A stretch of 32,000 nt of DNA, taken from positions 1,470,001 to 1,502,000 of the forward strand of contig OY969938.1 in the NCBI GenBank assembly GCA_963704755.1, given 5' to 3'. The stretch is from an uncultured Chloroflexia bacterium (lineage in GTDB: Bacteria; Chloroflexota; Anaerolineae; Anaerolineales; Anaerolineaceae). Below are positions 4,800-23,826 of this stretch, one piece after another (position 1 is the stretch's first letter; each line of letters opens with the position of its first letter). Both the position numbers and the translations under genes were made by a program. The notes below the pieces were generated by a model, which saw only the letters and a list, made by a program, of their open reading frames with translations, searched no databases and was not told where the DNA came from.

Positions 4800-4911
4800 G
4801 TAACTGCTAAGCCAGACCGGGAAGAACCCCTAATTTGAGCTGATTATAGGGGATACCCTCCCGCGATCACCTCAAATTAGGTAACCACTTACCAGGAGCC
4901 TGAGTAGTTCC
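4800..4911 (+). mobile_element. 112-bp MITE-like element, hairpin-less subfamily (GTAACTGCTAAGCC ... GCCTGAGTAGTTCC)
   Basis: The termini match those of the other GTAAC elements. The internal GGGAAGAACCCCTAATTTGAG module is shared with 7458-7510, 14257-14317 and 20421-20479. There is an internal 11-bp inverted repeat, CCTAATTTGAG/CTCAAATTAGG. The flanking 8-mers are GAGCAATT and GTACAATT (6/8). Confidence 0.6.
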
Positions 4912-7481: not shown

Positions 7482-7510
7482 GAACCCGCAATTTGAGCCT
7501 GAGTAGATAC
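7458..7510 (+). mobile_element. 53-bp MITE-like element (short form) overlapping the 3' end of the preceding CDS
   Basis: ATATCGCCTCAGCCAAATAGGTAAGAACCCGCAATTTGAGCCTGAGTAGATAC aligns to the left end, GGGAAGAACCCC-AATTTGAG module and right end of 4800-4911. The flanking 8-mers are AGATTTTT and CAATTTTT (6/8). Confidence 0.55.
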
Positions 7511-8232: not shown

Positions 8233-8298
8233 ACAGGGATATCAGGCCTGAAAAATTTCAATTCATCCAGGTTATTCTCGAAGAGGAACAAAAAAATG

Positions 8299-8410
8299 GT
8301 AACCGCTCAGGCAAGTGCGCAAGGTGAGGGTGTTTTTATTATTTTTTACGCGCTTCGCGCGTAAAAAATAATAAAAACACCCTAATCCTCTGCAGTAGCG
8401 GAGTAGTTAC
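8299..8410 (+). mobile_element. 112-bp MITE with a hairpin core (copy E1)
   Basis: GTAACCGCTCAGGCAAGTGCGCAAGGTG-[26-bp perfect stem AGGGTGTTTTTATTATTTTTTACGCG, loop CTTCG]-AATCCTCTGCAGTAGCGGAGTAGTTAC. It is near-identical to 11396-11507 and to the reverse complement of 20609-20720. Confidence 0.85.
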
Positions 8411-8466
8411 AAAAAAACGATGTAATTGCGGTACAACACACCGCAATTACATCGTTTTTTTGTTCC
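8411..8466. terminator. A7-hairpin-T7 palindrome (bidirectional-terminator architecture), disrupted by MITE E1
   Basis: AAAAAAACGATGTAATTGCGGT-ACAACAC-ACCGCAATTACATCGTTTTTTTGTTCC. The partner of the final TTTTTTTGTTCC is GGAACAAAAAAA at 8285-8296, on the far side of E1. Confidence 0.5.
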
Positions 8467-8592
8467 GCCAGTCAAGCAACCCATCAGTGGTTTCTAGACA
8501 AAAAGGGAAACCGAAACTCCCTTTTCCCGTATATCATTTCAAGGTAATTCGGTAGTCTTTCACTGCCATAATAATTCAAAGGAGTAACGATC

Positions 8593-8991
8593 ATGGCTGA
8601 ATATCAATCCATGCCTGTTATGACAGGCACAAAACCCGGAATGGTGCAAGCAATCGGCGTCATGACGCTGGTCAACGGGATCCTGAACATCCTCGCCGGA
8701 CTGGGGCTTACTTTTGGTTTCGCGGTGACCGTCGTCGGTTTGTTGTGCGTACCGTTCACGATCTTACCAACCGTCCTGGGCATTTTCGAAGTCATCTATG
8801 CCTCTAAAGTCATTGCCAACCCGCCCGTACCGGTCAAATTTTCCCAGGCCATCGCCATCCTGGAAATCTGCTGCATCCTGGTCGGCAATTTCGTCTCGAT
8901 GATCGTCGGTATCCTGGCCCTGGTGTTCTACAACGACCCGCAGGTCAAGGCATACTTTAGTACACTTAACCCGGAACCGCTCGAGGCATAG
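8593..8991 (+). CDS. Small integral membrane protein, function unknown
   Basis: 132-aa ORF with an AAAGGAG SD 8 nt upstream. It has three to four hydrophobic helices. I recognise no family. Confidence 0.75.
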   Translation: MAEYQSMPVMTGTKPGMVQAIGVMTLVNGILNILAGLGLTFGFAVTVVGLLCVPFTILPTVLGIFEVIYASKVIANPPVPVKFSQAIAILEICCILVGNFVSMIVGILALVFYNDPQVKAYFSTLNPEPLEA

Positions 8992-9079
8992 CATCCGCCG
9001 GCCAAAAATTCTGGAATTGGTGTGCGTGCAGGGGAAAAGACTACACCCACCCCAATTCCAGAAACCCTACACTTTTTTA

Positions 9080-9108
9080 TTGTAAAAAGGCTGGAAAACG
9101 GCTATATT
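9080..9108 (+). promoter_or_regulatory. Candidate sigma70-type promoter (TTGTAA-17 nt-TATATT) for the DUF4013 gene
   Basis: Hexamers lie at 9080-9085 and 9103-9108 with a 17-nt spacer. This predicts a 5' UTR of about 117 nt. Confidence 0.35.
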
Positions 9109-9231
9109 TATTTCATCAGGGAGCGCAAACAGGGAATTAAACCATGTTTGTAATGACTTAACAATCCTCCCTGATCCCCAGGTAACATCTTTGACTCATC
9201 GTTCTTATTCAATCAAGCAAGGAGGAAATTA

Positions 9232-9894
9232 ATGGATTTCGGAAAGGCATTTTCATTCGTTTTTGAAGATCCGGATTGGGCCCGAAAGGTACTCATTGCC
9301 GCGCTGGTTCTGATCATCCCCATCATCGGCGAACTGGTCGTCTTGGGTTGGGCATTGAAAATATCCCAGAACGTCATGGAAGGCAGTCCGCGGCCTTTGC
9401 CGGATATCGATTTCGGCGCCGACCTGGCCCGTGGCTTCATGGGATTTGTGATCGGTTTTGTGTACGCCCTGCCGATTACTATCGTCTCCGGTTTCTTTGG
9501 GATTGTGGATGCCGTCTTGGCCAATAGCGTCGGCAACTCCAACGGATTGGTGACCGCCTTCTCGTTGGTGTATGGCTGTTTTGGCCTGCTCGCCCTGCTC
9601 TACGGCATCGCGATGGCGTTAGTCCTGCCGGCCGCCTACACGAATTACCTGGCCAAAGGCAACCTGGGCGCAGGTTTCCACCTTGGCGAGGTCTTCGCCA
9701 TGGTCCGCCGCAATATTGGCGCTTATTTCATTGTCCTGCTGGGCTCGATCGTCGCCAGCATCATCGCTTCGGTCGGCGTGATCGCCTGTGTTATTGGCGT
9801 CCTGGCCACCGGGGCTTATTCTTACGCCATCCTGGGCCACCTTTATGGGCAGTCCTACCTGGAATCGAACAAAGCACCTCAGGTTGTAAGCTGA
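9232..9894 (+). CDS. DUF4013-family membrane protein
   Basis: A GGAGG SD lies 6 nt upstream. The N-terminus MDFGKAFSFVFEDPDWARKVLIAALVLIIPIIGELVVLGW is the typical DUF4013 opening, and several TM helices follow. Confidence 0.8.
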   Translation: MDFGKAFSFVFEDPDWARKVLIAALVLIIPIIGELVVLGWALKISQNVMEGSPRPLPDIDFGADLARGFMGFVIGFVYALPITIVSGFFGIVDAVLANSVGNSNGLVTAFSLVYGCFGLLALLYGIAMALVLPAAYTNYLAKGNLGAGFHLGEVFAMVRRNIGAYFIVLLGSIVASIIASVGVIACVIGVLATGAYSYAILGHLYGQSYLESNKAPQVVS

Positions 9895-9915
9895 CCGATT
9901 ATAGATCGAATGTAA

Positions 9916-9976
9916 AGATTACCGGAAAAAAATATTCGCAGTGCGTTGCACTGCGAATATTTTTTTCCGGTAATCT
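9916..9976. terminator. 29-bp perfect palindrome with an internal A7/T7 (bidirectional terminator between convergent genes)
   Basis: AGATTACCGGAAAAAAATATTCGCAGTGC-GTT-GCACTGCGAATATTTTTTTCCGGTAATCT lies between the stop codons at 9894 (+) and 9983 (-). Confidence 0.6.
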
Positions 9977-9982
9977 TGTTCG

Positions 9983-10564
9983 TCAGGTTTCTTCTTCCGA
10001 AAACTCTTCCACATGATAGATCAGCACAAACAGTTTCTTCTTGCGCCACAAGTTGCGGGGAGCGCCCATCTTCAGGCACAGGTTATCCAAAAAATCATGC
10101 GGGTCCGGCAGTTTTTCCCACACTTGTGGCAGAAAAGTCGCCCGTCGGTAACCATCCCGCAGCACCACCCCATCGACGCCAGGGTGCAGCAGGCCGGGTA
10201 ATTCCTCCGGCTGATTATATTCCAGCGGCTGCGGTGTGGTCAGGCAGGATATCTCGATAGAAAGCTGGCCCATTTCCTCCGGGCGCACGGGTGCGAAGCG
10301 GTAATCCTCCAGGGCGGCAGCGGCGGCGTGTTCGCGTACATCTTCGAGCAGCGGCTGGTAAGGTTCCAGCGCCCCGATACAGCCGCGCAGGTTACCCTGG
10401 CGGGTAAGCGTGACGAAAGCAGCCCCGAGTTCACTCAAGACCGGCGGGTACTCTTTCAAATCCAGCGGTTCAAGGATTCCCCCATTTACGGTCAGCTCAA
10501 TGGCTTCCCGCGCAAATTTCAGCAGAAGCGTTTTTTCCTTTTGAGATAACCCACCCTTTTCCAT
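9983..10564 (-). CDS. AMMECR1 domain protein
   Basis: 193-aa ORF. NLRGCIGALEPYQPLLEDVREHAAAAALEDYRFAPV is the AMMECR1 signature region (RGCIG). Confidence 0.9.
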   Translation of the reverse strand: MEKGGLSQKEKTLLLKFAREAIELTVNGGILEPLDLKEYPPVLSELGAAFVTLTRQGNLRGCIGALEPYQPLLEDVREHAAAAALEDYRFAPVRPEEMGQLSIEISCLTTPQPLEYNQPEELPGLLHPGVDGVVLRDGYRRATFLPQVWEKLPDPHDFLDNLCLKMGAPRNLWRKKKLFVLIYHVEEFSEEET

Positions 10565-10576
10565 AGTAAAGACCTG

Positions 10577-11065
10577 TCATTCTGCCAGCCGGTGATAGAT
10601 CCGGTTGTGGTAAACCAGCGGTTTGCCTTCATGGGTGTGCTTGACTGCCACAACTTCGCCGACGTACAGCACCGAATTGGGTGACTCGAATTTATGAACG
10701 ACCCGGCAGTCCAGGCCAACCAGTCCCTCGCTCAATAAAGGCACACCACTAACAAGTGAATAAACCTCCAGGCCATAAAACCGGTCTTCGTCTTCAGGAA
10801 TCCTCCCCGCAAACCGGTCAGAAATATCGGCCTGATATTCTGATAATATTGTAATGCCAAACACCTCGGATTGATCAACCATTCGCTGGGTCTTTGCATT
10901 TCTGGCAAGTGAAACGCTGACCAGGGCCGGCTCAAGTGAAATCGAAGTAAATGAGTTAACGGTCATGCCGTGGGTAACCCCTTCATCGATCGTCGAAAGG
11001 ACCGCTACTCCACTGGCCCAGTGCCGCATGGCGTGGCGTAGAATTTCGGGACGAATCTCAGCCAT
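10577..11065 (-). CDS. Flavin reductase-like (FMN-binding split-barrel) protein
   Basis: ASGVAVLSTIDEGVTHGMTVNSFTSISLEPALVSVSL is typical of the flavin reductase domain. I prefer the ATG at 11065 (MAEIRPEIL, GGAG 5 nt upstream) to the upstream start at 11149 in the ORF track. Confidence 0.85.
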   Translation of the reverse strand: MAEIRPEILRHAMRHWASGVAVLSTIDEGVTHGMTVNSFTSISLEPALVSVSLARNAKTQRMVDQSEVFGITILSEYQADISDRFAGRIPEDEDRFYGLEVYSLVSGVPLLSEGLVGLDCRVVHKFESPNSVLYVGEVVAVKHTHEGKPLVYHNRIYHRLAE

Positions 11066-11395
11066 TGCATCTCCAATCACACCTGCCGGGCGGCTGTCCG
11101 CCCTGGCAAGTATATTGCACCATAAAAGATATCTTTTGTAACTTCGCAACTACTCCGGGAAACAAGGTGCCGTATTTATTTTCTGCCCAAAAAGCCCGCA
11201 GTGAATAAAGACCACCTGGCTCCAGACTTTAAATAGTTATATCCCTTCTTTATACTTTTCGGCATAGGCCGAGTCAAGGGTGGTGTAAAATAACCGTACT
11301 TGCATAAATTCCTCGAAAGGGACCTGATTTGAGGTGCTGGGGGCGCCAGCTCGCATGTGCAAACACATCAAATTGGGCGCAATGCTCATAAAAAA

Positions 11396-11507
11396 GTAAC
11401 TGCTCAGGCAAGTGCGCAAGGCGAGGGTGTTTTTATTATTTTTTGTGCGCTTCGCGCAAAAAAAATAATAAAAACACCCTAAACCTCTGCGGTAGCTAAG
11501 TAGTTAC
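11396..11507 (+). mobile_element. 112-bp MITE with a hairpin core (copy E2)
   Basis: Same architecture as E1, with a perfect 8-bp direct duplication ATAAAAAA on both sides (11388-11395 and 11508-11515). Confidence 0.9.
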
Positions 11508-11660
11508 ATAAAAAAGAGAGTTTTTCCTGAACCGGTCAAACACTTGATTTATTCGCTTTTCTTGAGGTACTATTCCTTATAATCGATCCAGAAAAAGTAC
11601 TCTCGCAGGAGCGAGAAGCAGCTTATTACGATTTACCAGGAGAACCCTGGAGAACCCTTC

Positions 11661-12482
11661 ATGACCAACTTGCCTGACGAGCACTTTTCAACCGAATCAG
11701 AACCCGAGCCCCCCAAGAGCAATCACGCTTTCAGTGCATTGTGGACCATCCTGACCGTTGCGTTGGTGATGGCGACGCTCTTTACCCTGTGGACGCCCGC
11801 CAACCTGTTCTCCAATCAAATGCTGGATAACATGTTTCAGGCCTGGCAGGCCAACCCGACCCTCACCTACCCGACCCCCACTTCGTTACCCAAGCAAAAA
11901 ATCGGGATTGTGGCCGGGCACTGGGGCAACGATTCGGGAGCAGTTTGCCCGGATGGGCTGACCGAGCAGCAGGTCAATTTGGATATTGCCAGCCGGGTCC
12001 AACAGCAGTTGATCGCCGCCGGTTACGACGTGGATTTGCTGCAAGAGTTCGATCCCAAGCTGACGGAATATCAGGCCCTGGCGCTGGTTTCGATCCACAA
12101 CGATTCGTGCGACTACATCAACGACGAGGCCACCGGTTTCAAGGTGGCGGCTGCCGCTTCCAGCGCTTACCCGGAAAAAGCCGATCGCTTGAGCGCCTGC
12201 CTGATCGATCGCTACGCCAAAACAACCGGCCTGAAGTTCCACCCCAACTCAATCACTCCGGATATGACCCAGTACCACACCTTCCGCGAGATCAACAGCA
12301 ACACCACCGCGGCTATCATCGAGACCGGCTTTCTTAATCTCGATCGGACGATCCTGACTCAACACCCGGACCTGGTCGCCCAGGGGGTGACGAACGGGAT
12401 CCTGTGTTTCGTGCGTAACGAATCCATTAGCACAACGGCCACACCAGACAGTACAGTTCCCGCTACAACGACGGCACCATGA
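11661..12482 (+). CDS. N-acetylmuramoyl-L-alanine amidase (Amidase_3 family), membrane-anchored
   Basis: The N-terminal TM helix is followed by IGIVAGHWGNDSGAV...LVSIHNDSC...IETGFLN, the Amidase_3 metal-ligand pattern. It overlaps the next gene by 4 nt (ATGA). Confidence 0.9.
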   Translation: MTNLPDEHFSTESEPEPPKSNHAFSALWTILTVALVMATLFTLWTPANLFSNQMLDNMFQAWQANPTLTYPTPTSLPKQKIGIVAGHWGNDSGAVCPDGLTEQQVNLDIASRVQQQLIAAGYDVDLLQEFDPKLTEYQALALVSIHNDSCDYINDEATGFKVAAAASSAYPEKADRLSACLIDRYAKTTGLKFHPNSITPDMTQYHTFREINSNTTAAIIETGFLNLDRTILTQHPDLVAQGVTNGILCFVRNESISTTATPDSTVPATTTAP

Positions 12483-13630
12483 GCTCATCCACCAGCGACC
12501 AGGCACGTTCACTGATTCTCCAGGCCCATACTGCGCTTCGCCAAAAGCAGTTGGCGGAAGCCCGCCGCCTGGCCCAACTGGCTTCTCAGCTCGATCCTGA
12601 CCTGGAAGAACCCTGGTTGATCCTGGCCGGTCTTTCGGCCCCCCAGGACAGTGTGGACTATCTCAACCGGGCCCTGGCCATCAACCCGGCCAGTGAACGG
12701 GCCCGCCAGGGCATGCACTGGGCTGTGGCGCGCCTGCGCCAGTCGATCCTCGCCCAGGCCACCATACAAATTCCGCCGGAAGAGACCCAGGCCGTTAAAT
12801 CCCGCCCGGAACCCGCTACTACCCAGCCGGTGACGCCCAGGCCGGTCGTCCCTGCGCCGCTCGAAGATACCCGTCCGGTGCAGATCAAGTCGGAGCCACG
12901 GCCTACCCCTGAACCTGAAAACAAGGGCAAAAAGAAGAACCGTCATTGGCTGCCCTGGATGATCGCCGGGGACTTGATCCTGCTGGGAGTGCTGACCATT
13001 TTGATCCTATCCCTGGTGTTTCCCGCCACCCAGGTCGCCCAGGCCGGCGACCCGGCTTCGGCCCGCCCGGTTGGGGCCTTGCAAAAGCCCTCTCTGACGG
13101 CGACCTATACCAATACCTTTACCCCCACTCCAACATATACCTTCACCCCGACACCGACCAATACCCCCATACCGACCGCGACCGAAACACCGCTGCCGAC
13201 GAATACCCCTACCGATACCCTGGTACCCACCGGCGCTCCACCGGTCGTTGGAGATGTGCCGGCCGATATTTCGTCCGGGGAACACTGGATCGATGTCAAC
13301 CTGAGCGAGCAGATGGTATACGCCTACGAAGGCGATGCGCTGGTCAACAGTTTCCTGGTCTCTACCGGTACGGCTCAATACCCCACCGTCACCGGCCAAT
13401 ACCGGATTTACGTGAAATACCGTTATACCGATATGTCCGGCCCGGGCTATTACCTGCCCGATGTGCCCTACACCATGTACTTCTACCAGGGTTACGGGCT
13501 GCACGGCACCTACTGGCACAATAATTTCGGCCACCCAATGAGCCATGGATGCGTCAACCTGCGCACTGAAGACGCGGCCTGGCTGTACAGCTTCGCGGAC
13601 GTCGGCACATTGGTCAACGTCCATTACTGA
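12479..13630 (+). CDS. L,D-transpeptidase (YkuD domain) with an N-terminal TPR-like region, a TM helix and a PT-rich linker
   Basis: The C-terminal HGTYWHNNFGHPMSHGCVNLRTEDAAWLY contains the YkuD catalytic H...SHGC motif. The linker reads TYTNTFTPTPTYTFTPTPTNTPIPTATETPLPTNTPTDT. Confidence 0.9.
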   Translation: MSSSTSDQARSLILQAHTALRQKQLAEARRLAQLASQLDPDLEEPWLILAGLSAPQDSVDYLNRALAINPASERARQGMHWAVARLRQSILAQATIQIPPEETQAVKSRPEPATTQPVTPRPVVPAPLEDTRPVQIKSEPRPTPEPENKGKKKNRHWLPWMIAGDLILLGVLTILILSLVFPATQVAQAGDPASARPVGALQKPSLTATYTNTFTPTPTYTFTPTPTNTPIPTATETPLPTNTPTDTLVPTGAPPVVGDVPADISSGEHWIDVNLSEQMVYAYEGDALVNSFLVSTGTAQYPTVTGQYRIYVKYRYTDMSGPGYYLPDVPYTMYFYQGYGLHGTYWHNNFGHPMSHGCVNLRTEDAAWLYSFADVGTLVNVHY

Positions 13631-13767
13631 TTCTGGCCTGACCTGCTCCTCATTTTCGAGGCGCAGCGTTGGATGAGATCTGCCGGGGCGAACTTATCCC
13701 CCGGTGATTTCCACAATTTCAATCATTCAATGACCTCGATTCATTCGAGTTATGGGATAATTAGATC

Positions 13768-14187
13768 ATGCATAAACCGCTTTTTGAAGGACTGGTTATA
13801 GACGAAAACGATAACCCCGTCAGCACCACCTACGTGGGCGAAGAGCCCATGTACATTATCGATGACGCCGGCTTCAAACGCCACATTCCAGCCGAGCAGG
13901 TCGATCAGCAGGTACTGAATATCATCAAAGAGCAGATTTCTGGCAACGAGGGCCTGATTAGCGAGCAAACTGCCAAAATGTTAGGGCAGGAAGATATTTT
14001 TACCAAGGCAGCCATCGAGAACCAGATCAGCAACATCGACAAACAATTCGACCAGCTCATGCAGATGGGTATCCCCGAAGAAGGTCGCGCTTACATGGGG
14101 ATGATGGGGTTTAAAGTGGTTATCGATTTCCACGGTGATGTGATCCGGCTCGACCAGCCCGCTGCTACGGATGAAGGGGACGAATAA
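13768..14187 (+). CDS. Hypothetical acidic protein
   Basis: 139-aa ORF with coding-like composition. I recognise no motif. Confidence 0.6.
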   Translation: MHKPLFEGLVIDENDNPVSTTYVGEEPMYIIDDAGFKRHIPAEQVDQQVLNIIKEQISGNEGLISEQTAKMLGQEDIFTKAAIENQISNIDKQFDQLMQMGIPEEGRAYMGMMGFKVVIDFHGDVIRLDQPAATDEGDE

Positions 14188-14256
14188 GCCCTCATTCCTG
14201 CCTTATCCTGTATTCCAATACAAATCTAATAGACGACAGGTAAAATAACCTGGATA

Positions 14257-14317
14257 CTCAGTTACGGATTAAGGAATTCCCGAATTGGGGTTCTTCCCCG
14301 CCAGGCTGAGTGGTTAC
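14257..14317 (-). mobile_element. Degenerate or rearranged MITE-like copy (short form)
   Basis: The reverse complement reads GTAACCACTCAGCC-TGGCG-GGGAAGAACCCCAATTCG..., matching 4800-4839 and 20421-20456. The far end (CTCAGTTAC) is in the wrong orientation and no target duplication is visible. Confidence 0.45.
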
Positions 14318-14369
14318 CAAATTACAACTAGACATGGCCTGTAAATGGATCGCCGTGCCGGAGCAAAGA

Positions 14370-14894
14370 ATGCAATCTGAAAGAATAATCGAAGAAATGA
14401 AGCTGGTTTTTCGAGATATGCCTTTTGGGATTACGCATTCGCTTAAAGTCTTGCACAATGCCGAACAGATCATGGCAGCCGAAGGTTATCCAGAGGAAAA
14501 GCGCGAGCTGGTCCGGGCGGTAGCTATCTTGCACGACACCGGCGCGGTAGAAGCCAAACGCAAATACGGGTCCATCGACTCATGCTACCAGGAATTGGAA
14601 GGCCCGGGCGAAGCCAGGAAGATTCTCAGCAAAATTGGCTACCCGCCTGCGGATATCGAGAGGATTGCTTATATCATCGGCGCCCACCACAGCCCGGAAA
14701 AAATCGACGGGCTCGATTTTCAAATTCAATGGGATGCCGACCTGCTGGAAAATTTGCAGTCGCAAAAATTCGAGAACGATGGCCAGGCTAAAGAGTACAT
14801 CGAAGCCAACTTCACCACTGTTAGCGGTAAAGCTCTGGCCTACCGGCGAATATTTCCAGGCGCAACACCCTCCCCTGCACAGGACTTAAATTAA
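14370..14894 (+). CDS. HD-domain phosphohydrolase
   Basis: H...HD signature: THSLKVLHNAEQI ... AILHDTG ... IIGAHHS. The start is uncertain: GTG 14310 (inside the MITE copy), ATG 14334, or ATG 14370 (GGAG 6 nt upstream). I chose the last. Confidence 0.8.
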   Translation: MQSERIIEEMKLVFRDMPFGITHSLKVLHNAEQIMAAEGYPEEKRELVRAVAILHDTGAVEAKRKYGSIDSCYQELEGPGEARKILSKIGYPPADIERIAYIIGAHHSPEKIDGLDFQIQWDADLLENLQSQKFENDGQAKEYIEANFTTVSGKALAYRRIFPGATPSPAQDLN

Positions 14895-14945
14895 AATTAT
14901 AGTGGACGCGATATTCCCGGTCGCAGCGCACAGCGGAGAAACAAG

Positions 14946-15779
14946 ATGATGTCACCCGAATTTATTATTAATGTAACCGAAGCTGATTTTGAATACGAAG
15001 TACTGGCATATTCGCAAAATGTGCCGGTTGTGGTTGATTTTTGGGCCGAATGGTGCCGCCCGTGCAAAGCACTGGGTGCCCAATTGGAAGCGCTGGCCCG
15101 TGAGGCCCACGGCAGTTTCCGCCTGGCGCGGGTCAACGTGGACGAAAACCCTAACCTGGCTGCTCACTATTCGGTCCGCTCCATCCCCACCGTGAAGGCT
15201 TTTTCGAGCGGCGAAGTGGTCAGCGAGTTCGTGGGGGCACTGCCGGAAGAACGCATCCGTGAGTTTGTCGAAAATATCATGCCGCCTTCACCGGCCACGC
15301 TGGGCATCGAAAAAGGCATGAGCCTGCTGGCTGATGAAGAGTGGGTCGAGGCAGAGGACATATTCAATGAGGTTCTGGAACAAAGCCCGGATAACCCGGC
15401 CGCACTGCTCGGTCTGGCGCGGGCCTTGCTGGCCCAGGGCAAAACCCGTGACAGCCTGGGGATCCTCAATACATTCCCGGCCAGCAAATATTACCCCCAC
15501 GCCGAAGCCCTGCTGCCCCTGGCCGGAGCGCTAAAAGATTTGCCCCACCATCCGGCCGGTGAAGAAGACGACGAGAACGCTGCCGCCTACTGGAATGCAG
15601 TCCGCCTGGCTTCGCGCGGGATGGTACCGGCTGCGATCGATGGGCTGCTGGACCTGTTACGCCAGGACCGCCGTTACCAGGCCGCCCGGGTACTGGCGCT
15701 TAGCCTGTTCGAGCTGCTCGGTGAAGAAAACCCCCTCACCCGCCCCTATCGCAATGAATTAGGGAGTATCTTGTTTTAG
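14946..15779 (+). CDS. Thioredoxin-domain protein with a C-terminal TPR-like domain (YbbN/CnoX-like architecture)
   Basis: VVVDFWAEWCRPCKAL is a Trx fold with a CxxC motif, followed by a helical repeat region of about 160 aa. A GGAG SD lies upstream. Confidence 0.9.
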   Translation: MMSPEFIINVTEADFEYEVLAYSQNVPVVVDFWAEWCRPCKALGAQLEALAREAHGSFRLARVNVDENPNLAAHYSVRSIPTVKAFSSGEVVSEFVGALPEERIREFVENIMPPSPATLGIEKGMSLLADEEWVEAEDIFNEVLEQSPDNPAALLGLARALLAQGKTRDSLGILNTFPASKYYPHAEALLPLAGALKDLPHHPAGEEDDENAAAYWNAVRLASRGMVPAAIDGLLDLLRQDRRYQAARVLALSLFELLGEENPLTRPYRNELGSILF

Positions 15780-15780
15780 G

Positions 15781-15914
15781 AAGAGAATAGAGATTAGAGA
15801 ATAGTAACAAGGCAACAAGGCAACGAGGATCGCAAACTTTTTCCTCGTTGCCTTGTTACTTATTGCCTCGTTGCTCTCTTACTATTTTCTCTTCTCTATT
15901 CTCTATTCCCTTTC
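15781..15914. repeat. Imperfect palindrome of about 130 bp with (A/G)AGGCAA(C/T) octamer repeats, between convergent genes
   Basis: The inner stem is CAAGGCAACGAGGA / TCCTCGTTGCCTTG. The outer arms GAGAATAGAGATTAGAGAATAG and CTCTTCTCTATTCTCTATTC are partly complementary. Confidence 0.6.
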
Positions 15915-16880
15915 CTACCTCGTCAACGTCATCTGCGCCCAGGTGGTTGGGTCGGCCAGGCTGCGGTCGGGCAGGTTGGAGACCATCGACTGCTGCACGT
16001 TTTGAGACGGATTGTCGTTATCCGAGGCGGACACGCCAAAACCGTATTGCTGCCCGGCAGCAGGGGTAATACCGTACAGGCTCCAGGGGATGGCGGCTTC
16101 TACGCGGTAAACCCCATTGCCGCCGGTCGAGGCGATTTTCACCTGCGTACGCGAGCCCTGCACATTCGAGGGGAAATACAGGTAAGCTTCTTTGGTACCG
16201 CTGGTATTGGGGTTACCCGGTGAAATCACCAACTGGTAATCGTCGCTGGACAACTGGTGCGAACCGAAATCACCGTAAAGATTGGTGTCCAGCAGCAATT
16301 CGATGGAATCCCCTTTAAAAATATCCGCTCCGCTGGCGTTTTGGACATATTTGTCGTCGATCACCTTGACTGCCAGGTAGAGATAGGTTTCATCCCACCC
16401 GATGCGATAGGACGCTTGCAGATCATCGGAGTTGGCGACGTTTTGCTTGCCATAAACGATATACTTGGCCGGATAAGCGGTCGTCTTCCACTCATCCCAA
16501 ACTCCATCCAGCACCGGCGGAGTGCTGAGGTAAGGCACATTGATCTGCCCGGCCGCCCGGGACTGCTCGGTCGGCGTGGCCGGCGGTGCGACCGGTACGG
16601 CGGTGGCCGTCGGTGCCGTGGTCACGACGATAATTGGCTGGGTGGGCACTGGGGTAGGCGCACTCACGGTCGTTCCGCCTGGGGCTGCGACTGTGGGGGT
16701 CGATACATCAAATGGCAGGGTAGCCTGTGGGGTAATAATGTTAAATAATGCCGTCATGGTCATATTGGGGGTGGGTTCTGATGAAGTCGGTTCGATGCTG
16801 TTGGCGGGAAGGTTACACGCCAGCACTGCCAGGACCAACGCCAAAATAGCCGCACCAACCCGAATTCGCTTTTTGCTCAT
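15915..16880 (-). CDS. Secreted lipoprotein with a PT-rich linker and a CBM9/DOMON-like carbohydrate-binding-type domain
   Basis: The lipobox-like signal is MSKKRIRVGAAILALVLAVLAC. The C-terminal VLDGVWDEW...ASYRIGWDETYLYLAVKVIDDKYV...GDSIELLLD resembles the CBM9-like family. A GGAG SD is present. Confidence 0.8.
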   Translation of the reverse strand: MSKKRIRVGAAILALVLAVLACNLPANSIEPTSSEPTPNMTMTALFNIITPQATLPFDVSTPTVAAPGGTTVSAPTPVPTQPIIVVTTAPTATAVPVAPPATPTEQSRAAGQINVPYLSTPPVLDGVWDEWKTTAYPAKYIVYGKQNVANSDDLQASYRIGWDETYLYLAVKVIDDKYVQNASGADIFKGDSIELLLDTNLYGDFGSHQLSSDDYQLVISPGNPNTSGTKEAYLYFPSNVQGSRTQVKIASTGGNGVYRVEAAIPWSLYGITPAAGQQYGFGVSASDNDNPSQNVQQSMVSNLPDRSLADPTTWAQMTLTR

Positions 16881-17038
16881 GGTCTTCTCCTTCTAATGCA
16901 ATCTATTAATTCGCTTGCGACCATACTAAAGACGAAAAACCGGTTGTAATGTTCCCTCATTTTACGCCAGCCTATTTCTCGTCGTACGAGCCCACTTGAT
17001 ACTCAGTTATAATCAATAATGATCGTAACGAAAAGACT

Positions 17039-17731
17039 ATGGAAGCCTCAAATTTGACCCCTGTCCCTGTCAAGCTGCGCACCAACCTGGAAATCCGGGT
17101 GGTTTTGTTCACCTTAATGGATAACCGTTTGCAACTATTGCTCCAGCCCAGCAGCGACGAGCAATACGGCGGCTTTTGGGTCTTGCCCGCCTCGGGAATC
17201 TCTCCGGCCAAATCGTTGGAGGAATCGGCTACCCAGTGCATCGAATCACTGACCGGGTTGAAGGAAGTCTACCTGGAGCAGTTGTACACTTTCGGCGAAC
17301 CCGAACGCCACGCGGGCAAACGACTGATCTCGGTGGTCTATTTTGCCCTCATCCCGGCCAATTCGCTGGAAGAACGCAGTCCATCCGGCCTGGAGAGTCA
17401 TTGGTACGCCCTGGATAACCTGCCTCAACTGGCCATGGATCACAACGAAATCCTGGGATATGCCTTGCGCCGCCTGCGCTACAAGCTGGAATACACCGCG
17501 GTCGGCTTCGAACTGCTCCCACCCACCTTTACCTTGAGCGAATTACAGCACACCTACGAGCTGATCCTGGGGGAAAAGCTCGACAAGCGCAATTTCCGCC
17601 GGCGCATCCTGGAAGCCAATATCATCGAAGCCACGCCTTACCGCCGCATGGGCGAAGGACGCCCGGCCCAGCTTTACCGCTACCGCCCGGATGCCGTCGC
17701 CGAGGTCAAGGCCCGGCGCCTCTTCCCATAA
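17039..17731 (+). CDS. NrtR-like regulator (degenerate Nudix domain plus C-terminal winged helix)
   Basis: A Nudix-fold N-terminal half has a degenerate Nudix box. The C-terminal half, ALRRLRYKLEYTAVGFELLPPTFTLSELQHTYELILGEKLDKRNFRRRI, is typical of NrtR-family proteins. Confidence 0.8.
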   Translation: MEASNLTPVPVKLRTNLEIRVVLFTLMDNRLQLLLQPSSDEQYGGFWVLPASGISPAKSLEESATQCIESLTGLKEVYLEQLYTFGEPERHAGKRLISVVYFALIPANSLEERSPSGLESHWYALDNLPQLAMDHNEILGYALRRLRYKLEYTAVGFELLPPTFTLSELQHTYELILGEKLDKRNFRRRILEANIIEATPYRRMGEGRPAQLYRYRPDAVAEVKARRLFP

Positions 17732-17734
17732 TAA

Positions 17735-17911
17735 GCCACGGATGAACACTGATGGACCCAGATTTTTTGTTTGTTATATTGGTGGGCAAAGCCCACCAAT
17801 ATAACAAACAAAAAAATACCCGATGGAAATTCGAACCTTGTTGTTTTTTGGGCGCTTCGCGCCCAAAAAACAACAAGGAATTATCTGTGTCTATCTGTGT
17901 TCATCCGTGGC
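17735..17911. repeat. Nested hairpin complex: a 15-bp outer inverted repeat enclosing two long perfect hairpins
   Basis: Outer repeat: GCCACGGATGAACAC (17735-17749) and GTGTTCATCCGTGGC (17897-17911). Inner hairpins: 17763-17815 (25-bp stem, loop AAA) and 17836-17878 (19-bp stem, loop CTTCG). Confidence 0.8.
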
Positions 17912-19141
17912 TATTCAGCAAGCTGATGCTCTCGATGTGGTAGGTCTGCGGGAATAAGTCGAACGGGGTGACTTTATCCAATGAATAGCCGCCGGCCATC
18001 AGGCGCTTGAGATCGCGCGCCAGGGTGGATGGGTCGCAGGACACGTAGGCGATTGTTTTGGGCTGGATGGCCAGCAGCGCATCGATCACCCGCCGGTCCA
18101 GGCCGGCCCGGGGCGGATCCAGCAGCACCACGTCCGCCGGCACGTCCAACTGCGGCAGCACTTCCTCGACCGGGCCGAGGTAAAACTCCACGTTATCGAA
18201 CTCGTCCAGGTTGGCGGTGTAGTCCTCACAGGCCGACTCAGAAACCTCCACCCCCACACAGCGGCCCACCAGCGGCGCCAGGAAGGCCGAGAACAGGCCC
18301 ACGCCACAATACAGGTCCAGCAGGGTCGTGTGTGGATTAAGCGGCAGGCTGGCCAGCAGGGCCTGCACCATCGCCTCCGCCTGGAGCGTATTGACCTGGA
18401 AGAACGACCCGGCGGACACTTTAAAGGGCCGCCCGGCGACCTCCATCACCAGGTAATCGTCCCCGGCCAGGATGATCTGGCCGGCCGGGCTGCTGTGCAC
18501 CGCCGAGAGCGGAATGTCCACGCTGAACTCGGGCGCGACCGGGTCTTCGCTTTCGAGCACCATCAACAGCTCGTCGCCGCTGCCTGCTCGCAGCTCTACC
18601 CGCTGGCTAAATTCGGCCGGATCGAAATCCAGTTGCGGCCACAGTTCTCCCAGGGGCGCTTCTGGTAAGAAACACTCCTGGATGGGCACGACCCGGTGCG
18701 ATCCCCGGCCTGGTAGCCGATCTTCCCCTGCGGATCGAGATGAAACTGGACCGTGTTGCGGTAATTCCAGGGCTGAGGCGAAGGCACTACCGGCTCGACC
18801 TCGGGTTCCGCCACCCCGGCGATCCGCCGGAGCTGGTCGATCACAATCTCGCGCTTGGCCGCCAGTTGAGCCGGGTAGTCCATATGCTGGTAATGGCAGC
18901 CGCCGCAGACACCGAAATGCCGGCAGCGCGGCAGGACCCGCTCAGGAGCCGCTACAACGGTCTCCAGCAGCCTTCCACGGGCATAGTTGCGCTTATCCTC
19001 TATAATTTCCACCCGGACAGTCTCTCCGGGCAGGCTGAAGGGCACAAAAATCGCCCGGCCATCCGCCAGGCGTCCCATGCACTCACCCCCATACGTTAGT
19101 GTCGTTAGTTTGACCGTTTCGGTCTTAATCTGATTTTCCAT
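17901..19141 (-). pseudogene. rlmD: 23S rRNA (uracil-C5)-methyltransferase, RlmD/RumA family, split by a 1-nt frame shift in a homopolymer run
   Basis: The N-terminal ORF (18596-19141) carries a TRAM domain and the CRHFGVCGGCHYQH Fe-S motif. The C-terminal ORF (17901-18689) carries the SAM-MTase domain (LDLYCGVGLFS). Reading ...GKIGYQAG then shifting one base gives GSHRVVPIQECFLPE, the canonical family junction. The shift lies in the C4 run at 18703-18706. Confidence 0.8.
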
Positions 19142-19228
19142 AGGGCAATATGCCTGGATTATATCAGCTTCTCTGCCAGGTAGAGTTTATGCCGGACCAG
19201 GACCGTCAGGCTTTCTCTAGATATTTTG

Positions 19229-19329
19229 GTCACTGCTCGGGCCGGTTCGTAAATTAGGAGGGTTTTATTGTTTTTCGCGGGCGAAAAACAATAAAACCCT
19301 CCTCTCTTTTGCAGTAGCTGCATCGTTGC
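19229..19329 (+). mobile_element. Diverged 101-bp member of the hairpin-core MITE family (copy E4)
   Basis: GTCACTGCTCGGGCC...[22-bp perfect stem GGAGGGTTTTATTGTTTTTCG]...TTGCAGTAGCTGCATCGTTGC. The flanking 8-mers are ATATTTTG and GTATTTTG (7/8). Confidence 0.75.
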
Positions 19330-19411
19330 GTATTTTGTTAAGGGAAGCGAAGATAACCATTCCCCTGGGACGGCATAATTGAGACCAATCTACACCGGCA
19401 CTCCCGGTGTC

Positions 19412-19849
19412 TCAAATCATATGCACCCAGATGTAATCTTCCAGGCTTTGAATGGTCGAATCCTTTTCCAGAATGAGCTGCCGGACCACGTCGCCAATGG
19501 AAATGACGCCCAGCATCCGGTTGCTGGTATCCAACACCGGCAGGTGGCGGATGCGGCGGGAGGTCATCAGGGACATACACGCCTCGACTGACTGGTCTGG
19601 AGTGACGTAGTACACCCCGGTCACCATCAGCTCGCCAACCTGGGAGTCCAGGTTGACCGAGGCCAGCAGCGCTTTGCGGGCGAAATCCCGCTCACTAAAG
19701 ATGCCCACAATCTTGCCTGCTTCCACCACCAGCACGGCCCCAATTTTTTGTTCGGCCATCAACTTGAGCGCGTCGCGCACGCTGGAAGTAGGGGTGACGT
19801 ACCATACCTGGGTGATTTTATCCCGCAGCAGATCTTTAACGGTGGCCAT
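19412..19849 (-). CDS. Stand-alone CBS-pair domain protein
   Basis: 145 aa with two CBS motifs (IGAVLVVEAGKIVGIFSERD and RHLPVLDTSNRMLGVISIGDV). Confidence 0.9.
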   Translation of the reverse strand: MATVKDLLRDKITQVWYVTPTSSVRDALKLMAEQKIGAVLVVEAGKIVGIFSERDFARKALLASVNLDSQVGELMVTGVYYVTPDQSVEACMSLMTSRRIRHLPVLDTSNRMLGVISIGDVVRQLILEKDSTIQSLEDYIWVHMI

Positions 19850-19883
19850 TTAATCGTTCCCTTCCTTCTCCGCGGCGTGAAAT

Positions 19884-20336
19884 TTATCCGCTGTACTCAC
19901 GACCTTGAATGTAGTTTTCCAGGTGCTGGATGGTCGTCTCTTTCTCGACCATCAATTGCTTGACCACATCGCCGATGCTGACCAGGCCTACCAGGCGGGT
20001 TTCGTCTTCCAGGACCGGCAGGTGGCGGATATGTTTTGCCGTCATCAATGCCATGCACTCTTCTACCGTTTGCTGGGGACTGACGAAATAAACCGAATGG
20101 GTCATGTATTTGCCCACCGGCTCGTCCAGCAGCAAAGCATTGGCCGTTACTGCGTGGCGGGCGTAGTCCCGCTCCGAATAGATGCCGACAATCCGGTTAT
20201 CTTCCATAACCAATACTGCACCAATATTCTTGTCGGCCATCAACTGCAACACCTGTCTGACCGTGACCGTTGCAGCGACCGTCCAAACTGCATTTCCTTT
20301 CGCATCGAGCAAGTTCTTAACGTTAGCCATCCTCAA
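19884..20336 (-). CDS. Stand-alone CBS-pair domain protein (paralogue of the downstream gene)
   Basis: 150 aa, clearly homologous to 19412-19849 (IGAVLVMEDNRIVGIYSERD and RHLPVLEDETRLVGLVSIGDV). A GGAG SD is present. Confidence 0.9.
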   Translation of the reverse strand: MRMANVKNLLDAKGNAVWTVAATVTVRQVLQLMADKNIGAVLVMEDNRIVGIYSERDYARHAVTANALLLDEPVGKYMTHSVYFVSPQQTVEECMALMTAKHIRHLPVLEDETRLVGLVSIGDVVKQLMVEKETTIQHLENYIQGREYSG

Positions 20337-20420
20337 CTCCTTTCCAAGATCCAGGTTTTAAACGACAAATCCTGATTCCTCCGGAGAGGTTCAGAAGGGC
20401 AAATCCGAAACGGATTAATT

Positions 20421-20479
20421 GTAACGTCCCAGCCTGGCGGGAAAGAACCCCGAATTCCCATACAAGCCCGAGCAGTTAC
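20421..20479 (+). mobile_element. 59-bp MITE-like element (short form)
   Basis: GTAACGTCCCAGCC-TGGCG-GGAAAGAACCCCGAATTC-CCATACAA-GCCCGAGCAGTTAC. It is flanked on both sides by ATTAATT (20414-20420 and 20480-20486). Confidence 0.75.
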
Positions 20480-20608
20480 ATTAATTTAATGATTATCCTC
20501 GAACAAGGCCGGTTGTCAAGTTGAAGTCAGCGAACGAAGGGGTGAAATTGGAGTCACCCGGGGAAAAAGAGAATAGTAATTAGTTGATTAGTGATTAGTA
20601 AAGTGGAA

Positions 20609-20720
20609 GTAACCACTCAGCTACTACAAAGGATTCGGGTGTTTTTATTATTTTTTGCGCGCTTCGCGCGCAAAAAATAATAAAAACACCCTCACCTTGC
20701 GCACTTACCTGAGCAGTTAC
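20609..20720 (-). mobile_element. 112-bp MITE with a hairpin core (copy E3, inverted relative to E1 and E2)
   Basis: The arms are the reverse complement of the E1/E2 arms. The flanking 8-mers are AAGTGGAA and AAGAGGAA (7/8). The apex loop is still CTTCG on the + strand. Confidence 0.9.
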
Positions 20721-20724
20721 AAGA

Positions 20725-20758
20725 GGAAAACAAAAACCCGGTAGGAATTGCCGGGTTT
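20725..20758 (-). terminator. Rho-independent terminator closing the tRNA-Ser transcription unit
   Basis: The minus strand reads AAACCCGG-CAATTCCTA-CCGGGTTT followed by TTGTTTTCC. Confidence 0.65.
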
Positions 20759-20760
20759 CC

Positions 20761-20809
20761 TGGCGGAGAGGGTGGGACAGGGTACTTCAATGGTATTCAA
20801 ACCCACCTT
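20761..20809 (-). repeat. tRNA-Ser 3'-end-derived unit A
   Basis: The first 17 nt (TGGCGGAGAGGGTGGGA) are identical to the 3' end of the tRNA-Ser gene, including CCA. Then follow CAGGGTACTTCAATGGTA and TTCAAACCCACC, a T-arm-like stem split by an 18-nt insert. Confidence 0.85.
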
Positions 20810-20841
20810 GAATATCTTTTCCACCAGTTTTTGTTCGTTTC

Positions 20842-20890
20842 TGGCGGAGAGGGTGGGACAGGGTACCTCGATGGTATTCAAACCCACCTT
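20842..20890 (-). repeat. tRNA-Ser 3'-end-derived unit B
   Basis: It matches unit A at 47 of 49 positions and lies 16 nt from the tRNA-Ser 3' end. Confidence 0.85.
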
Positions 20891-20904
20891 CTTGATAATA
20901 TTTT

Positions 20905-20996
<92 letters not shown>

Positions 20997-21476: not shown

Positions 21477-21531
21477 ATATTGGGTATATGGGGTGGGGCG
21501 GCTTCGTCGCCCCACCCCATATACCCAATAT
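21477..21531. repeat. 25-bp hairpin with a CTTCG apex
   Basis: ATATTGGGTATATGGGGTGGGGCGG-CTTCG-TCGCCCCACCCCATATACCCAATAT, followed by TTTTT on the + strand. Confidence 0.7.
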
Positions 21532-23694: not shown

Positions 23695-23742
23695 TGGAGC
23701 ACTTCTCAAGCAAATAGCAAAGAATAAAAAAGAGGTAATTTA

Positions 23743-23791
23743 AGTGTGGTTTCATTCGTGGCGGAGTAGCTGCCACGAATGAAACCACACT
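23743..23791. terminator. 20-bp perfect hairpin between convergent thrS and the M23 peptidase gene
   Basis: AGTGTGGTTTCATTCGTGGC-GGAGTAGCT-GCCACGAATGAAACCACACT. A T-rich tract follows on the minus strand. Confidence 0.55.
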
Positions 23792-23826
23792 CAAAAATTC
23801 TTGTCCTGAACTGGCGTTATTTGCTT

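Follow-up and report, generated by a model that had tools for sequence, protein, structure and literature searches.

Short repeated elements and their ends

The window, a 32-kb stretch from an uncultured member of the Anaerolineae (Chloroflexota), contains several short noncoding repeats, some with a long hairpin, and the question is what these repeats are and which enzyme, if any, has moved them. [quoted passage not shown] Their MITE status is supported by the size of 53-112 bp, the absence of any ORF longer than 35 aa (the largest, of 35 aa, overlaps E1), the TIRs, the 8-bp target site duplications (TSDs), and the existence of subfamilies that share only their termini.

Table 1. Positions, ends, hairpins, and flanking sequences of the E and F elements in the 32-kb window (rc, reverse complement)
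Element	Position	Strand	Length (bp)	Ends	Hairpin	Flanks, left / right	Matches	Remarks
E1	8299-8410	+	112	left GTAACCGCTCAGGC; right (rc) GTAACTACTCCGCT	8327-8383, 27-bp perfect stem, TTC loop	AAAAAATG (8291-8298) / AAAAAAAC (8411-8418)	6/8	
E2	11396-11507	+	112		27 bp, one mismatch	ATAAAAAA (11388-11395) / ATAAAAAA (11508-11515)	8/8	divergent intergenic region of 10577-11149 (-) and 11661-12482 (+)
E3	20609-20720	-	112		20637-20691, 26-bp perfect stem, flipped loop	AAGTGGAA (20601-20608) / AAGAGGAA (20721-20728)	7/8	inverted orientation
E4	19229-19329	+	101	GTCACTGCTCGGGC / (rc) GCAACGATGCAGCT	19256-19303, own 23-bp perfect stem	ATATTTTG / GTATTTTG	7/8	diverged relative
E5	11138-11230	-		right ...GGAGTAGTTGCGAAGTTAC				degenerate E-type remnant, nhmmer E=0.005
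F1	4800-4911	+	112	GTAACTGCTAAGCC / (rc) GGAACTACTCAGGC		GAGCAATT / GTACAATT	6/8	unrelated interior
F2	20421-20479	+	59	GTAACGTCCCAGCCTGGCGGGAAAGAACCCC...GCCCGAGCAGTTAC		ATTAATT / ATTAATT	7/7 with 1-nt register shift; 4/8 in register	
F3	~14256-14317	-		single clear end GTAACCACTCAGCCTGGCGGGGAAGAACCCC, from 14317 on minus strand				partial; other boundary uncertain
F4	7458-7510	+	53	right (rc) GTATCTACTCAGGC; degenerate left ATATCGCCTCAGCC		AGATTTTT / CAATTTTT	6/8	

Pairwise identities among E1, E2, and E3 are 102, 100, and 97 of 112 positions (87-91%), and this divergence of 9-13% gives no sign of current activity. E4 was recovered as a relative of the family by nhmmer (E=1e-24), and E5 has a decayed hairpin and an indistinct left end. 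The initial annotation listed four copies with imperfect TIRs, and a check of the sequence found its coordinates and lengths exact and the repeats present in all four; E5 and F1-F4, however, have to be added to the family.

The elements terminate in GTAACYRCTCAGS at both ends, with GTAAC-YR-CTCAG-S as the TIR consensus. GTAAC is the start of 11 out of 15 termini in the window, and GTCAC, GCAAC, GGAAC, and GTATC occur as variants. The ends of E3 pair at 12 of 12 positions, and partial pairing continues inward. The two ends of the E subfamily differ slightly, positions 6-7 being TG in the left end and TA in the right one, as in ISDge4.

The termini are common to E and F elements, but the E-type hairpin is absent from the latter, and DNA folding revealed no significant hairpin in F1 (z=-2.65) or F2 (z=0.1). 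As the same ends are found on unrelated interiors without a hairpin, it is the ends with the TSD, and not the hairpin, that represent the shared functional unit. In all, about nine elements lie between 4.8 and 20.7 kb at separate intergenic sites, in both orientations, and in divergent, tandem, and convergent contexts among housekeeping genes. The last seven codons and the stop codon of the ORF at 5094-7481 are supplied by F4, and predicted start codons are overlapped by other elements of the window.

Target site duplications

Direct duplications of 8 bp had been proposed for E1-E4, and the match counts were the same on recounting. Together, the flanking 8-mers of these four elements match at 28 of 32 positions, against a mean of 9.6 under a null of AT-rich flanks drawn from the same window (P<5e-7). 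With F1, F2, and F4 included, seven elements have 44 matches out of 56 (P<5e-7). When the flanks of E1 are read as 9-mers (AAAAAAATG / AAAAAAACG), eight of nine positions agree. The right copy of the E1 duplication is also the A-tract of an adjoining terminator-like hairpin at 8409-8463.

Relationship of the ends to insertion sequences

A link to the IS66 family had been suggested on the basis of the GTAA start and the 8-bp repeats, together with a search for an insertion sequence (IS) with matching ends. The link is borne out by TIR matches, a position weight matrix (PWM), and TSDs, and it can be narrowed to the ISBst12 group of single-ORF elements; the matching ends were found in ISs of this type from other organisms. 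Ends of five such ISs were read directly from sequence: from Geobacillus plasmid pHTA426 (end GTAACTATTCAGCCC, TSD AACTCGTC), Deinococcus wulumuqiensis (GTAACTGCTCAGCA, TSD TAAAAATC), Ca. Chlorohelix (a plasmid of Chloroflexota; GTAACAATTCAGCC, TSD AATTATTT), Acaryochloris (GTTACTGCCCAGGC, TSD CTTCATTC), and B. thuringiensis (GTAACTACTCAGCTT). The ends share the pattern GTWAC-NN-YTCAG-S, and an 8-bp duplication without mismatch flanks four of these ISs. For ISDge4, the published TIRs are GTGACTACTCAGCA and GTAACTGCTCAGCA, the direct repeat is 8 bp long, and transposition was observed experimentally (PMC12898284). Of 14 positions, termini in the window share 10-13 with the IS ends; the right ends of the E elements share 13 with the B. 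thuringiensis IS.

The PWM was built solely from 12 ends of ISs in other phyla, without any sequence of the window. Its top 11 hits in the window are all element termini (14.8-19.7 bits), and 15 sites reach 12 bits or more, where 0.87 were expected. Control DNA surrounding three such ISs (122 kb) contained no site of at least 15 bits other than the IS ends. Inverted repeats of classical three-ORF IS66 elements, GTAAGCGTCCGG... or GTAACCGTCCGGGCA, depart from the TIR of the window elements after position 5-7, and these ends fit less well, which refines the assignment from IS66 to the ISBst12 group.

Hairpin of the E elements

The proposed 26-bp perfect hairpin core is exact for E3, but E1 has 27 perfect pairs, E2 has 27 bp with a mismatch, and E4 has 23 bp. 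The DNA-fold z-scores of E1-E4 range from -7.9 to -11.3, and none of 200 shuffled sequences folded equally well. Beyond the core, an imperfect palindrome spans all 112 bp. The 3-nt loop of E3 is inverted relative to its flanks, GAA versus TTC. The compensatory stem changes that had been pointed out were confirmed: at pair 50/64, the A-T of E1 corresponds to G-C in E3, and at pair 51/63, E2 has T-A where E1 and E3 have C-G. Across all four copies, both partners are changed in five of 26 central pairs, and 97.9% of cells remain paired. Covariation among four sequences has weak power, and DNA palindromes can self-correct. Conservation is higher in the hairpin arms, where one column out of 42 is variable, than elsewhere (17 out of 70; p=0.0025), and a purely neutral model of the hairpin as 'stuffer' does not predict this. 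A hairpin of similar sequence is situated at 17838-17876, within a different palindromic element (17734-17912).

The likeliest cause of the maintained complementarity is hairpin or template-switch correction at the DNA level, or foldback selection, and a host function is less likely. An unlikely extension of the MITE reading is that the E-type core is a selected module, acting as an RNA or ssDNA hairpin on neighbouring genes or in foldback mobilisation, which was spread by ISBst12-type ends and also entered the unrelated palindromic element; the genome would then carry a massively expanded and exapted family of IS66/ISBst12-derived MITEs.

It is quite improbable that the elements are simply structures selected by the host (terminators or attenuators, hairpins for RNA stability or RNase III, protein-binding palindromes), repeated for their function and not by transposition. 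Such a role would agree with the extreme stability of the hairpins (z down to -11.3), the compensatory changes and conserved arms, the similar hairpin in the other palindromic element, and the terminator-like flag on E4, but it leaves the TSDs and the IS-type TIRs unexplained. Moreover, on either strand of E1-E3 it is A-runs that come after the GC tip, and no U-tract is present after the tip or the full stem; the position relative to genes is inconsistent (downstream side of a gene, divergent promoter regions, antisense). The Rfam scan of the window gave only two tRNAs above the gathering threshold; the elements matched no family and received only sub-threshold hits to generic hairpins like miRNA precursors. 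Intrinsic terminators were considered for E1-E3 and rejected, the full stems running into TAATCC or CACCTT; E4 alone was flagged. The hairpin probably has no host function.

Origin and mobilisation

IS-type ends would also be left behind if full-length ISs had undergone separate deletions in place, and the F elements form a heterogeneous, partly degenerate set. For the E family this origin is already refuted: the 112-bp structure and the interior recur in E1-E3 at three loci with separate TSDs, so the short form itself must have been copied. In-situ deletion may have produced F2-F4; as an account of the elements as a whole it is very improbable.

The initial annotation had offered, as an alternative, REP/REPIN-like elements moved by a RAYT, an IS200/IS605-type HUH Y1 transposase recognising GTAG hairpins, and this is hardly credible: the right arm does carry two GTAG tetranucleotides and the whole element folds as a long REPIN-like hairpin, but both GTAGs arise from reading the ISBst12-type TIR GTAACTACTCAGCTAC on the opposite strand, so that this mechanism is not needed, the left arm has no matching CTAC pair though its TIR is otherwise homologous, F1 and F2 have these ends but no significant hairpin, no Y1 transposase was found in the ORF scan of the 32-kb window, and the E elements have significant 8-bp duplications, while mobility of the HUH/RAYT, IS200/IS605 type leaves none.

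As non-autonomous transposons of the ISBst12 type, the elements would be mobilised in trans by a transposase encoded elsewhere in the genome, presumably on a partner IS, which would bind the two ends and cut out or copy the element. Insertion would take place at a staggered 8-bp cut, with preference for A/T-rich intergenic DNA, and repair of the stagger would yield the 8-bp direct duplications. The E subfamily, with its two slightly different ends and long palindromic interior, is probably an internal-deletion or foldback derivative in which complementarity has been maintained via compensatory substitutions, symmetric indels, and the loop flip.

Search for copies and for the transposase

The earlier statement that no transposase is encoded in the window was borne out by the scan of its ORFs, among which no PF03050 (DDE_Tnp_IS66) transposase was detected. 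The 22-nt E terminus had no hit in viral, GTDB-representative, and JGI metagenome collections, a two-ended E pattern had none in metagenomes, and an F-type pattern matched only a coding motif of SDR outside the window. In the nearest relatives, whose ThrRS is about 78% identical, there is no synteny upstream of thrS, and the 45 kb examined from them contained no copies of the elements. None of the ISBst12-like transposases retrieved from the protein database was labelled as Anaerolineae; a homologue is present in Chloroflexota, in Ca. Chlorohelix.

The elements would represent a previously unannotated repeat family of Anaerolineae tied to a specific transposase group, and the prediction for the full genome is a PF03050 transposase flanked by GTAACYRCTCAGS. 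The family is of use for repeat masking and for gene annotation, given the stop codon contributed by one element and the start-codon overlaps of others. The findings suggest that ISBst12-type transposases can mobilise very short substrates of 53-112 bp that are set by ends of about 14 bp. No description of MITEs derived from the IS66/ISBst12 group was found in the literature searched, and the elements of the window may be the first example. Conceptually, they are ordinary MITEs, a well-known kind of selfish DNA.

Comparison with known systems

Members of the ISBst12 group (ISBst12, ISDge4, the 'ISGka4-family' element of pHTA426, ISKpn15, and ISAs21) resemble the window elements in the TIR starting with GTAAC (GTWAC-NN-YTCAG-S) and in the 8-bp target duplication, and the asymmetry of the left and right ends of ISDge4 is mirrored as well. 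These ISs have a length of 1.45-1.64 kb and a single transposase gene, whose product (PF03050) has about 450-485 aa, whereas the window elements are 53-112 bp and without an ORF. Classical three-ORF IS66 elements (IS66, IS679, ISPsk01, among others) have the GTAA start, 8-bp duplications, and a transposase of the same superfamily, but carry the accessory genes tnpA and tnpB. REPINs are, like the E elements, repeated intergenic long hairpins with GTAG, but they have neither TSDs nor IS-type TIRs; in the window, the duplications are statistically significant and the TIR accounts for the GTAGs. Palindromic bacterial MITEs such as Correia elements of Neisseria, pneumococcal RUP, and enterobacterial ERIC are, like the window elements, intergenic and noncoding, with a size of about 100-150 bp, TIRs, and target duplications; folding of the entire element can give a long hairpin that may be co-transcribed with neighbouring genes. 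The window elements differ from them in the TIR sequences, the TSD (TA for Correia), and the presumed transposase family.

Elements and target duplications

The E and F elements are united by a terminus of about 13 nt, GTAAC-YR-CTCAG-S, and an 8-bp duplication of the target, and not by the hairpin, because F1 and F2 share the ends without a significant fold (z = -2.65 and 0.10, respectively). The initial annotation had listed four copies of a hairpin MITE, and the positions and 112-bp length of E1–E3, as well as the diverged 101-bp copy E4, were borne out by the sequence and a profile search. The count was incomplete, as terminus searches with mismatches and repeat detection uncovered E5, a degenerate E-type remnant, and F1–F4, small elements with other interiors, all carrying the same ends. 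The local density is high, with about nine E/F elements in 16 kb. E1–E3 are pairwise identical at 97–102 of 112 positions. The subterminal sequence is GCAAGTGCGCAAGG / CTGCAGTAGC in the E type and CCTGGCGGGGAAGAACCCC in the F type, and a subterminal block AGCC-W-G-R-C-S-GG-R-AAGAACCCC is common to F1, F2, and F3.

Positions, lengths, and flanking 8-mers of the E and F elements in the window
Element	Position	Strand	Length (bp)	Flanking 8-mer match	Remarks
E1	8299-8410	+	112	6/8	
E2	11396-11507	+	112	8/8	
E3	20609-20720	-	112	7/8	
E4	19229-19329		101	7/8	Diverged relative; family profile E=1e-24
E5	11138-11230				Decayed E-type remnant; nhmmer E=0.005
F1	4800-4911		112	6/8	E-type ends, other interior
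F2	20421-20479		59	ATTAATT on either side, register shifted by one base	E-type ends, other interior
F3	~14256-14317				One clear end
F4	7458-7510		53	6/8	E-type ends, other interior

The 8-mers flanking E1–E4, annotated initially as direct duplications, match at 28 of 32 positions in total. Equally spaced AT-rich 8-mers of the same window have a null mean of 9.6/32, and none of 2 million simulations attained 28. For these four copies, the observation of a repeat with target site duplications (TSDs) is confirmed as far beyond chance.

Termini and relationship to insertion sequences

[quoted passage not shown] Inverted repeats of classical IS66 elements are GTAAGCGTCCGG... or GTAACCGTCCGGGCA (PMC12888890), and these fit the ends of the E/F elements more poorly than the ISBst12-group ends. 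The link to IS66 that had been proposed initially is thus narrowed: the ISBst12-group ends and the 8-bp TSD match, but the classical repeats fit worse.

The ends of five ISBst12-type insertion sequences (ISs with a single ORF) were read directly from fetched sequence. The five reference transposases align at 57% mean column identity. According to precomputed database annotation, PF03050 is present in the homologues that the Chlorohelix transposase and the five-sequence profile retrieved.

Ends of reference ISBst12-type insertion sequences
Host	Length (bp)	TIRs	TSD
Geobacillus kaustophilus pHTA426	1635	GTAACTATTCAGCCC / GTATCTATTCAGCCC	AACTCGTC
Deinococcus wulumuqiensis	1454	GTAACTGCTCAGCA (both ends)	TAAAAATC
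Ca. Chlorohelix allophototropha (Chloroflexota)	1504	GTAACAATTCAGCC / GTAACAGTTCAGAC	AATTATTT
Acaryochloris		GTTACTGCCCAGGC	CTTCATTC
Bacillus thuringiensis pLM4	1630	GTAACTACTCAGCTT (both ends)	No clean TSD

A 14-position weight matrix was computed from 12 IS ends alone, with the window sequence excluded, and the window was then scanned. The top 11 matches (14.8–19.7 bits) were exactly the ends of E1, E2, E3, F1, F2, F3, and F4, and 15 matches reached at least 12 bits, compared with 0.87 expected from Markov-shuffled windows. In control DNA (122 kb around three reference ISs), at least 15 bits were attained by IS ends only, and on 45 kb from the nearest relatives the matrix gave only chance matches in coding sequences. 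Individually, the window ends are identical to IS ends at 10–13 of 14 positions; the right ends of the E elements reach 13/14 with the B. thuringiensis IS and the left ends 12/14 with the Deinococcus IS. The asymmetry of the left and right ends of ISDge4 (TG versus TA at positions 6–7) is reproduced in the E elements. The IS-only matrix, the controls, the end identities, and this asymmetry are strong evidence that the elements have ISBst12-group ends. Their end sequences and the length of their TSDs place them with the ISBst12 group of the IS66 family. With a probability of roughly 85%, the E/F elements are ISBst12-type MITEs, which would be mobilised in trans. If so, the partner IS would have a single ORF, a length of about 1.5–1.6 kb, and ends GTAACYRCTCAGS.

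The Ca. Chlorohelix plasmid NZ_CP128402.1 has a solitary sequence resembling an ISBst12-type end, GTAACAGTTTAGCC (14.7 bits), at position 29331 on the minus strand; the full IS is some 8 kb away, and no partner lies within 2.5 kb. It may be a solo end.

Hairpin

E1–E4 are each an imperfect palindrome around a near-perfect central stem. The perfect 26-bp core annotated initially is that of E3, while the stem has 27 bp in E1, 27 bp with one mismatch in E2, and 23 bp in E4. Folded as single-stranded DNA, the four copies have z = -7.9 to -11.3 against dinucleotide shuffles. Among E1–E3, 18 of 112 columns are variable, with 1/42 in the A/T-rich arms versus 17/70 elsewhere (Fisher p=0.0025). The differences in the stem are indeed compensatory: two compensated pairs (50/64 and 51/63) lie at its tip, and 5 of 26 central pairs are altered on both sides when E4, which also has symmetric indels, is added. 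Paired cells are retained at 97.9% in E1–E4, a value attained by one of 500 shuffles. The 3-nt loop of E3 has the opposite orientation to that of E1 and E2, as is characteristic of a palindrome that undergoes flipping or template switching at the level of DNA. The preferred reading is a foldback-type MITE in which DNA-level processes would homogenise the arms. Selection for a function of the hairpin as RNA or DNA is a less probable alternative; an Rfam scan of the elements gave only sub-threshold matches to generic hairpins.

Mobilisation of GTAG-bearing hairpins in the REP/RAYT manner had been suggested by two GTAG tetranucleotides in the right arm. These are the reverse complement of the TIR GTAACTACTCAGCTAC, whose CTAC is present also in the end of the B. 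thuringiensis IS. HUH-type mobility leaves no target duplication, unlike the significant duplications here, and F1 and F2 bear the ends without a significant hairpin, so REP/RAYT mobilisation is rejected. Integron attC sites were discarded, as the termini depart from RYYYAAC/GTTRRRY, the copies point in both directions, and housekeeping genes lie on either side of them; intrinsic terminators were discarded for E1–E3, which have no U-tract and in which A-runs come after the GC tip on either strand.

Genomic context and neighbouring repeats

The window covers a housekeeping region in the chromosome of a member of the Anaerolineae (Chloroflexota) and encodes, among others, PBP1, ThrRS, SecA, ribosomal protein S1, two tRNAs, and CBS-domain proteins. 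Every element either lies between genes or is in contact with the end of an ORF; both orientations are represented, and the neighbouring genes are divergent, tandem, or convergent, depending on the element. ORF 5094–7481, which encodes a glycoside-hydrolase-like product of 795 aa, takes its final seven codons (ISPQPNR) and its TAA stop from part of F4 (7458–7481). The predicted starts of ORF 10577–11149 (minus strand) and ORF 14310–14894 (plus strand) overlap E5 and F3, respectively, and these start calls are therefore doubtful. No transposase, as annotated initially, and no RAYT domain was identified in the window ORFs scanned.

Near E3, a tRNA-Ser(GGA) gene is located at 20907–20996 on the minus strand. 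Three direct copies of its 3' end, TTTCTGGCGGAGAGGGTGGGA, spaced 81 and 65 nt, are present at 20756–20923 beside E3, and two of them extend into 53-nt units with 94% identity (20757–20809 and 20838–20890). They resemble either stacked att-site scars left by integrative elements that target tRNA genes or a 3' fragment of the tRNA that was duplicated in tandem.

Long palindromes are unusually common in intergenic DNA of the source genome. A second, different palindromic element at 17734–17912, between convergent genes, has 29-nt TIRs GCCACGGATGAACAC... and encloses two long hairpins, 17763–17815 (25 bp, perfect) and 17838–17876 (20 bp); the latter shares 79–85% identity with the E core across 39 nt, and its GCGC-TTC-GCGC tip is part of the similarity. 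No TSD was recognised for this element. The arms GCCACGAATGAAACC of a 24-bp hairpin at 23739–23795 resemble its TIR at 12 of 15 positions, and this hairpin may be of the same repeat family. A 123-bp palindromic element at 15782–15904, also between convergent genes, is made of GAGAATAG/GATTAG-like short repeats, and its GAGAATAGTAA motif is found again at 20569–20583, directly adjoining E3. Unique perfect intergenic hairpins of 24–30 bp are numerous (9915–9977, 8409–8463, 21477–21531, and 887–945), some with A-run/T-run flanks resembling bidirectional terminators; the insertion point of E1 is the A-tract of hairpin 8409–8463. Near the window start, a 60-nt direct repeat (617–676 and 798–857) is 95% identical, with copies 181 nt apart.

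Searches beyond the window

The E terminus GTAACYGCTCAGGYAAGTGCGC gave no match in DNA scans of viral, GTDB-representative, and JGI metagenome collections, nor did the two-ended E pattern in metagenomes. BLASTN of E3 and F1 against plasmids in distant mode gave only chance 27-nt matches. No element copies were found at three loci from the nearest relatives (L001–L003), with which synteny is lost upstream of thrS. This absence of copies elsewhere says little, because the closest available relatives are about 78% identical in ThrRS, with named matches (Thermanaerothrix, Bellilinea, and Anaerolineae MAGs) at 72–75%. The F-type pattern AGCCWGRCSGGRAAGAACCCC had 15 matches in genomes, all of them false positives in the coding sequence of a motif (SLAGKNP) of short-chain dehydrogenases.

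Metagenomes contain ISBst12-like transposases in abundance. The Chlorohelix protein and the five-sequence profile retrieved thousands of homologues each, mostly on IS-sized contigs of 1.5–2.5 kb; among the 120 matches listed for these two queries, none was labelled Anaerolineae.

Comparison with known elements

No description of MITEs of the ISBst12 group was found in the literature searched, and the elements may be the first example for this group. The E/F elements are ordinary MITEs, small and non-coding, with TIRs and TSDs and with several subfamilies whose common ends are those of an IS group, and they would work in the same way as other palindromic MITEs of bacteria, such as Correia, RUP, and ERIC.
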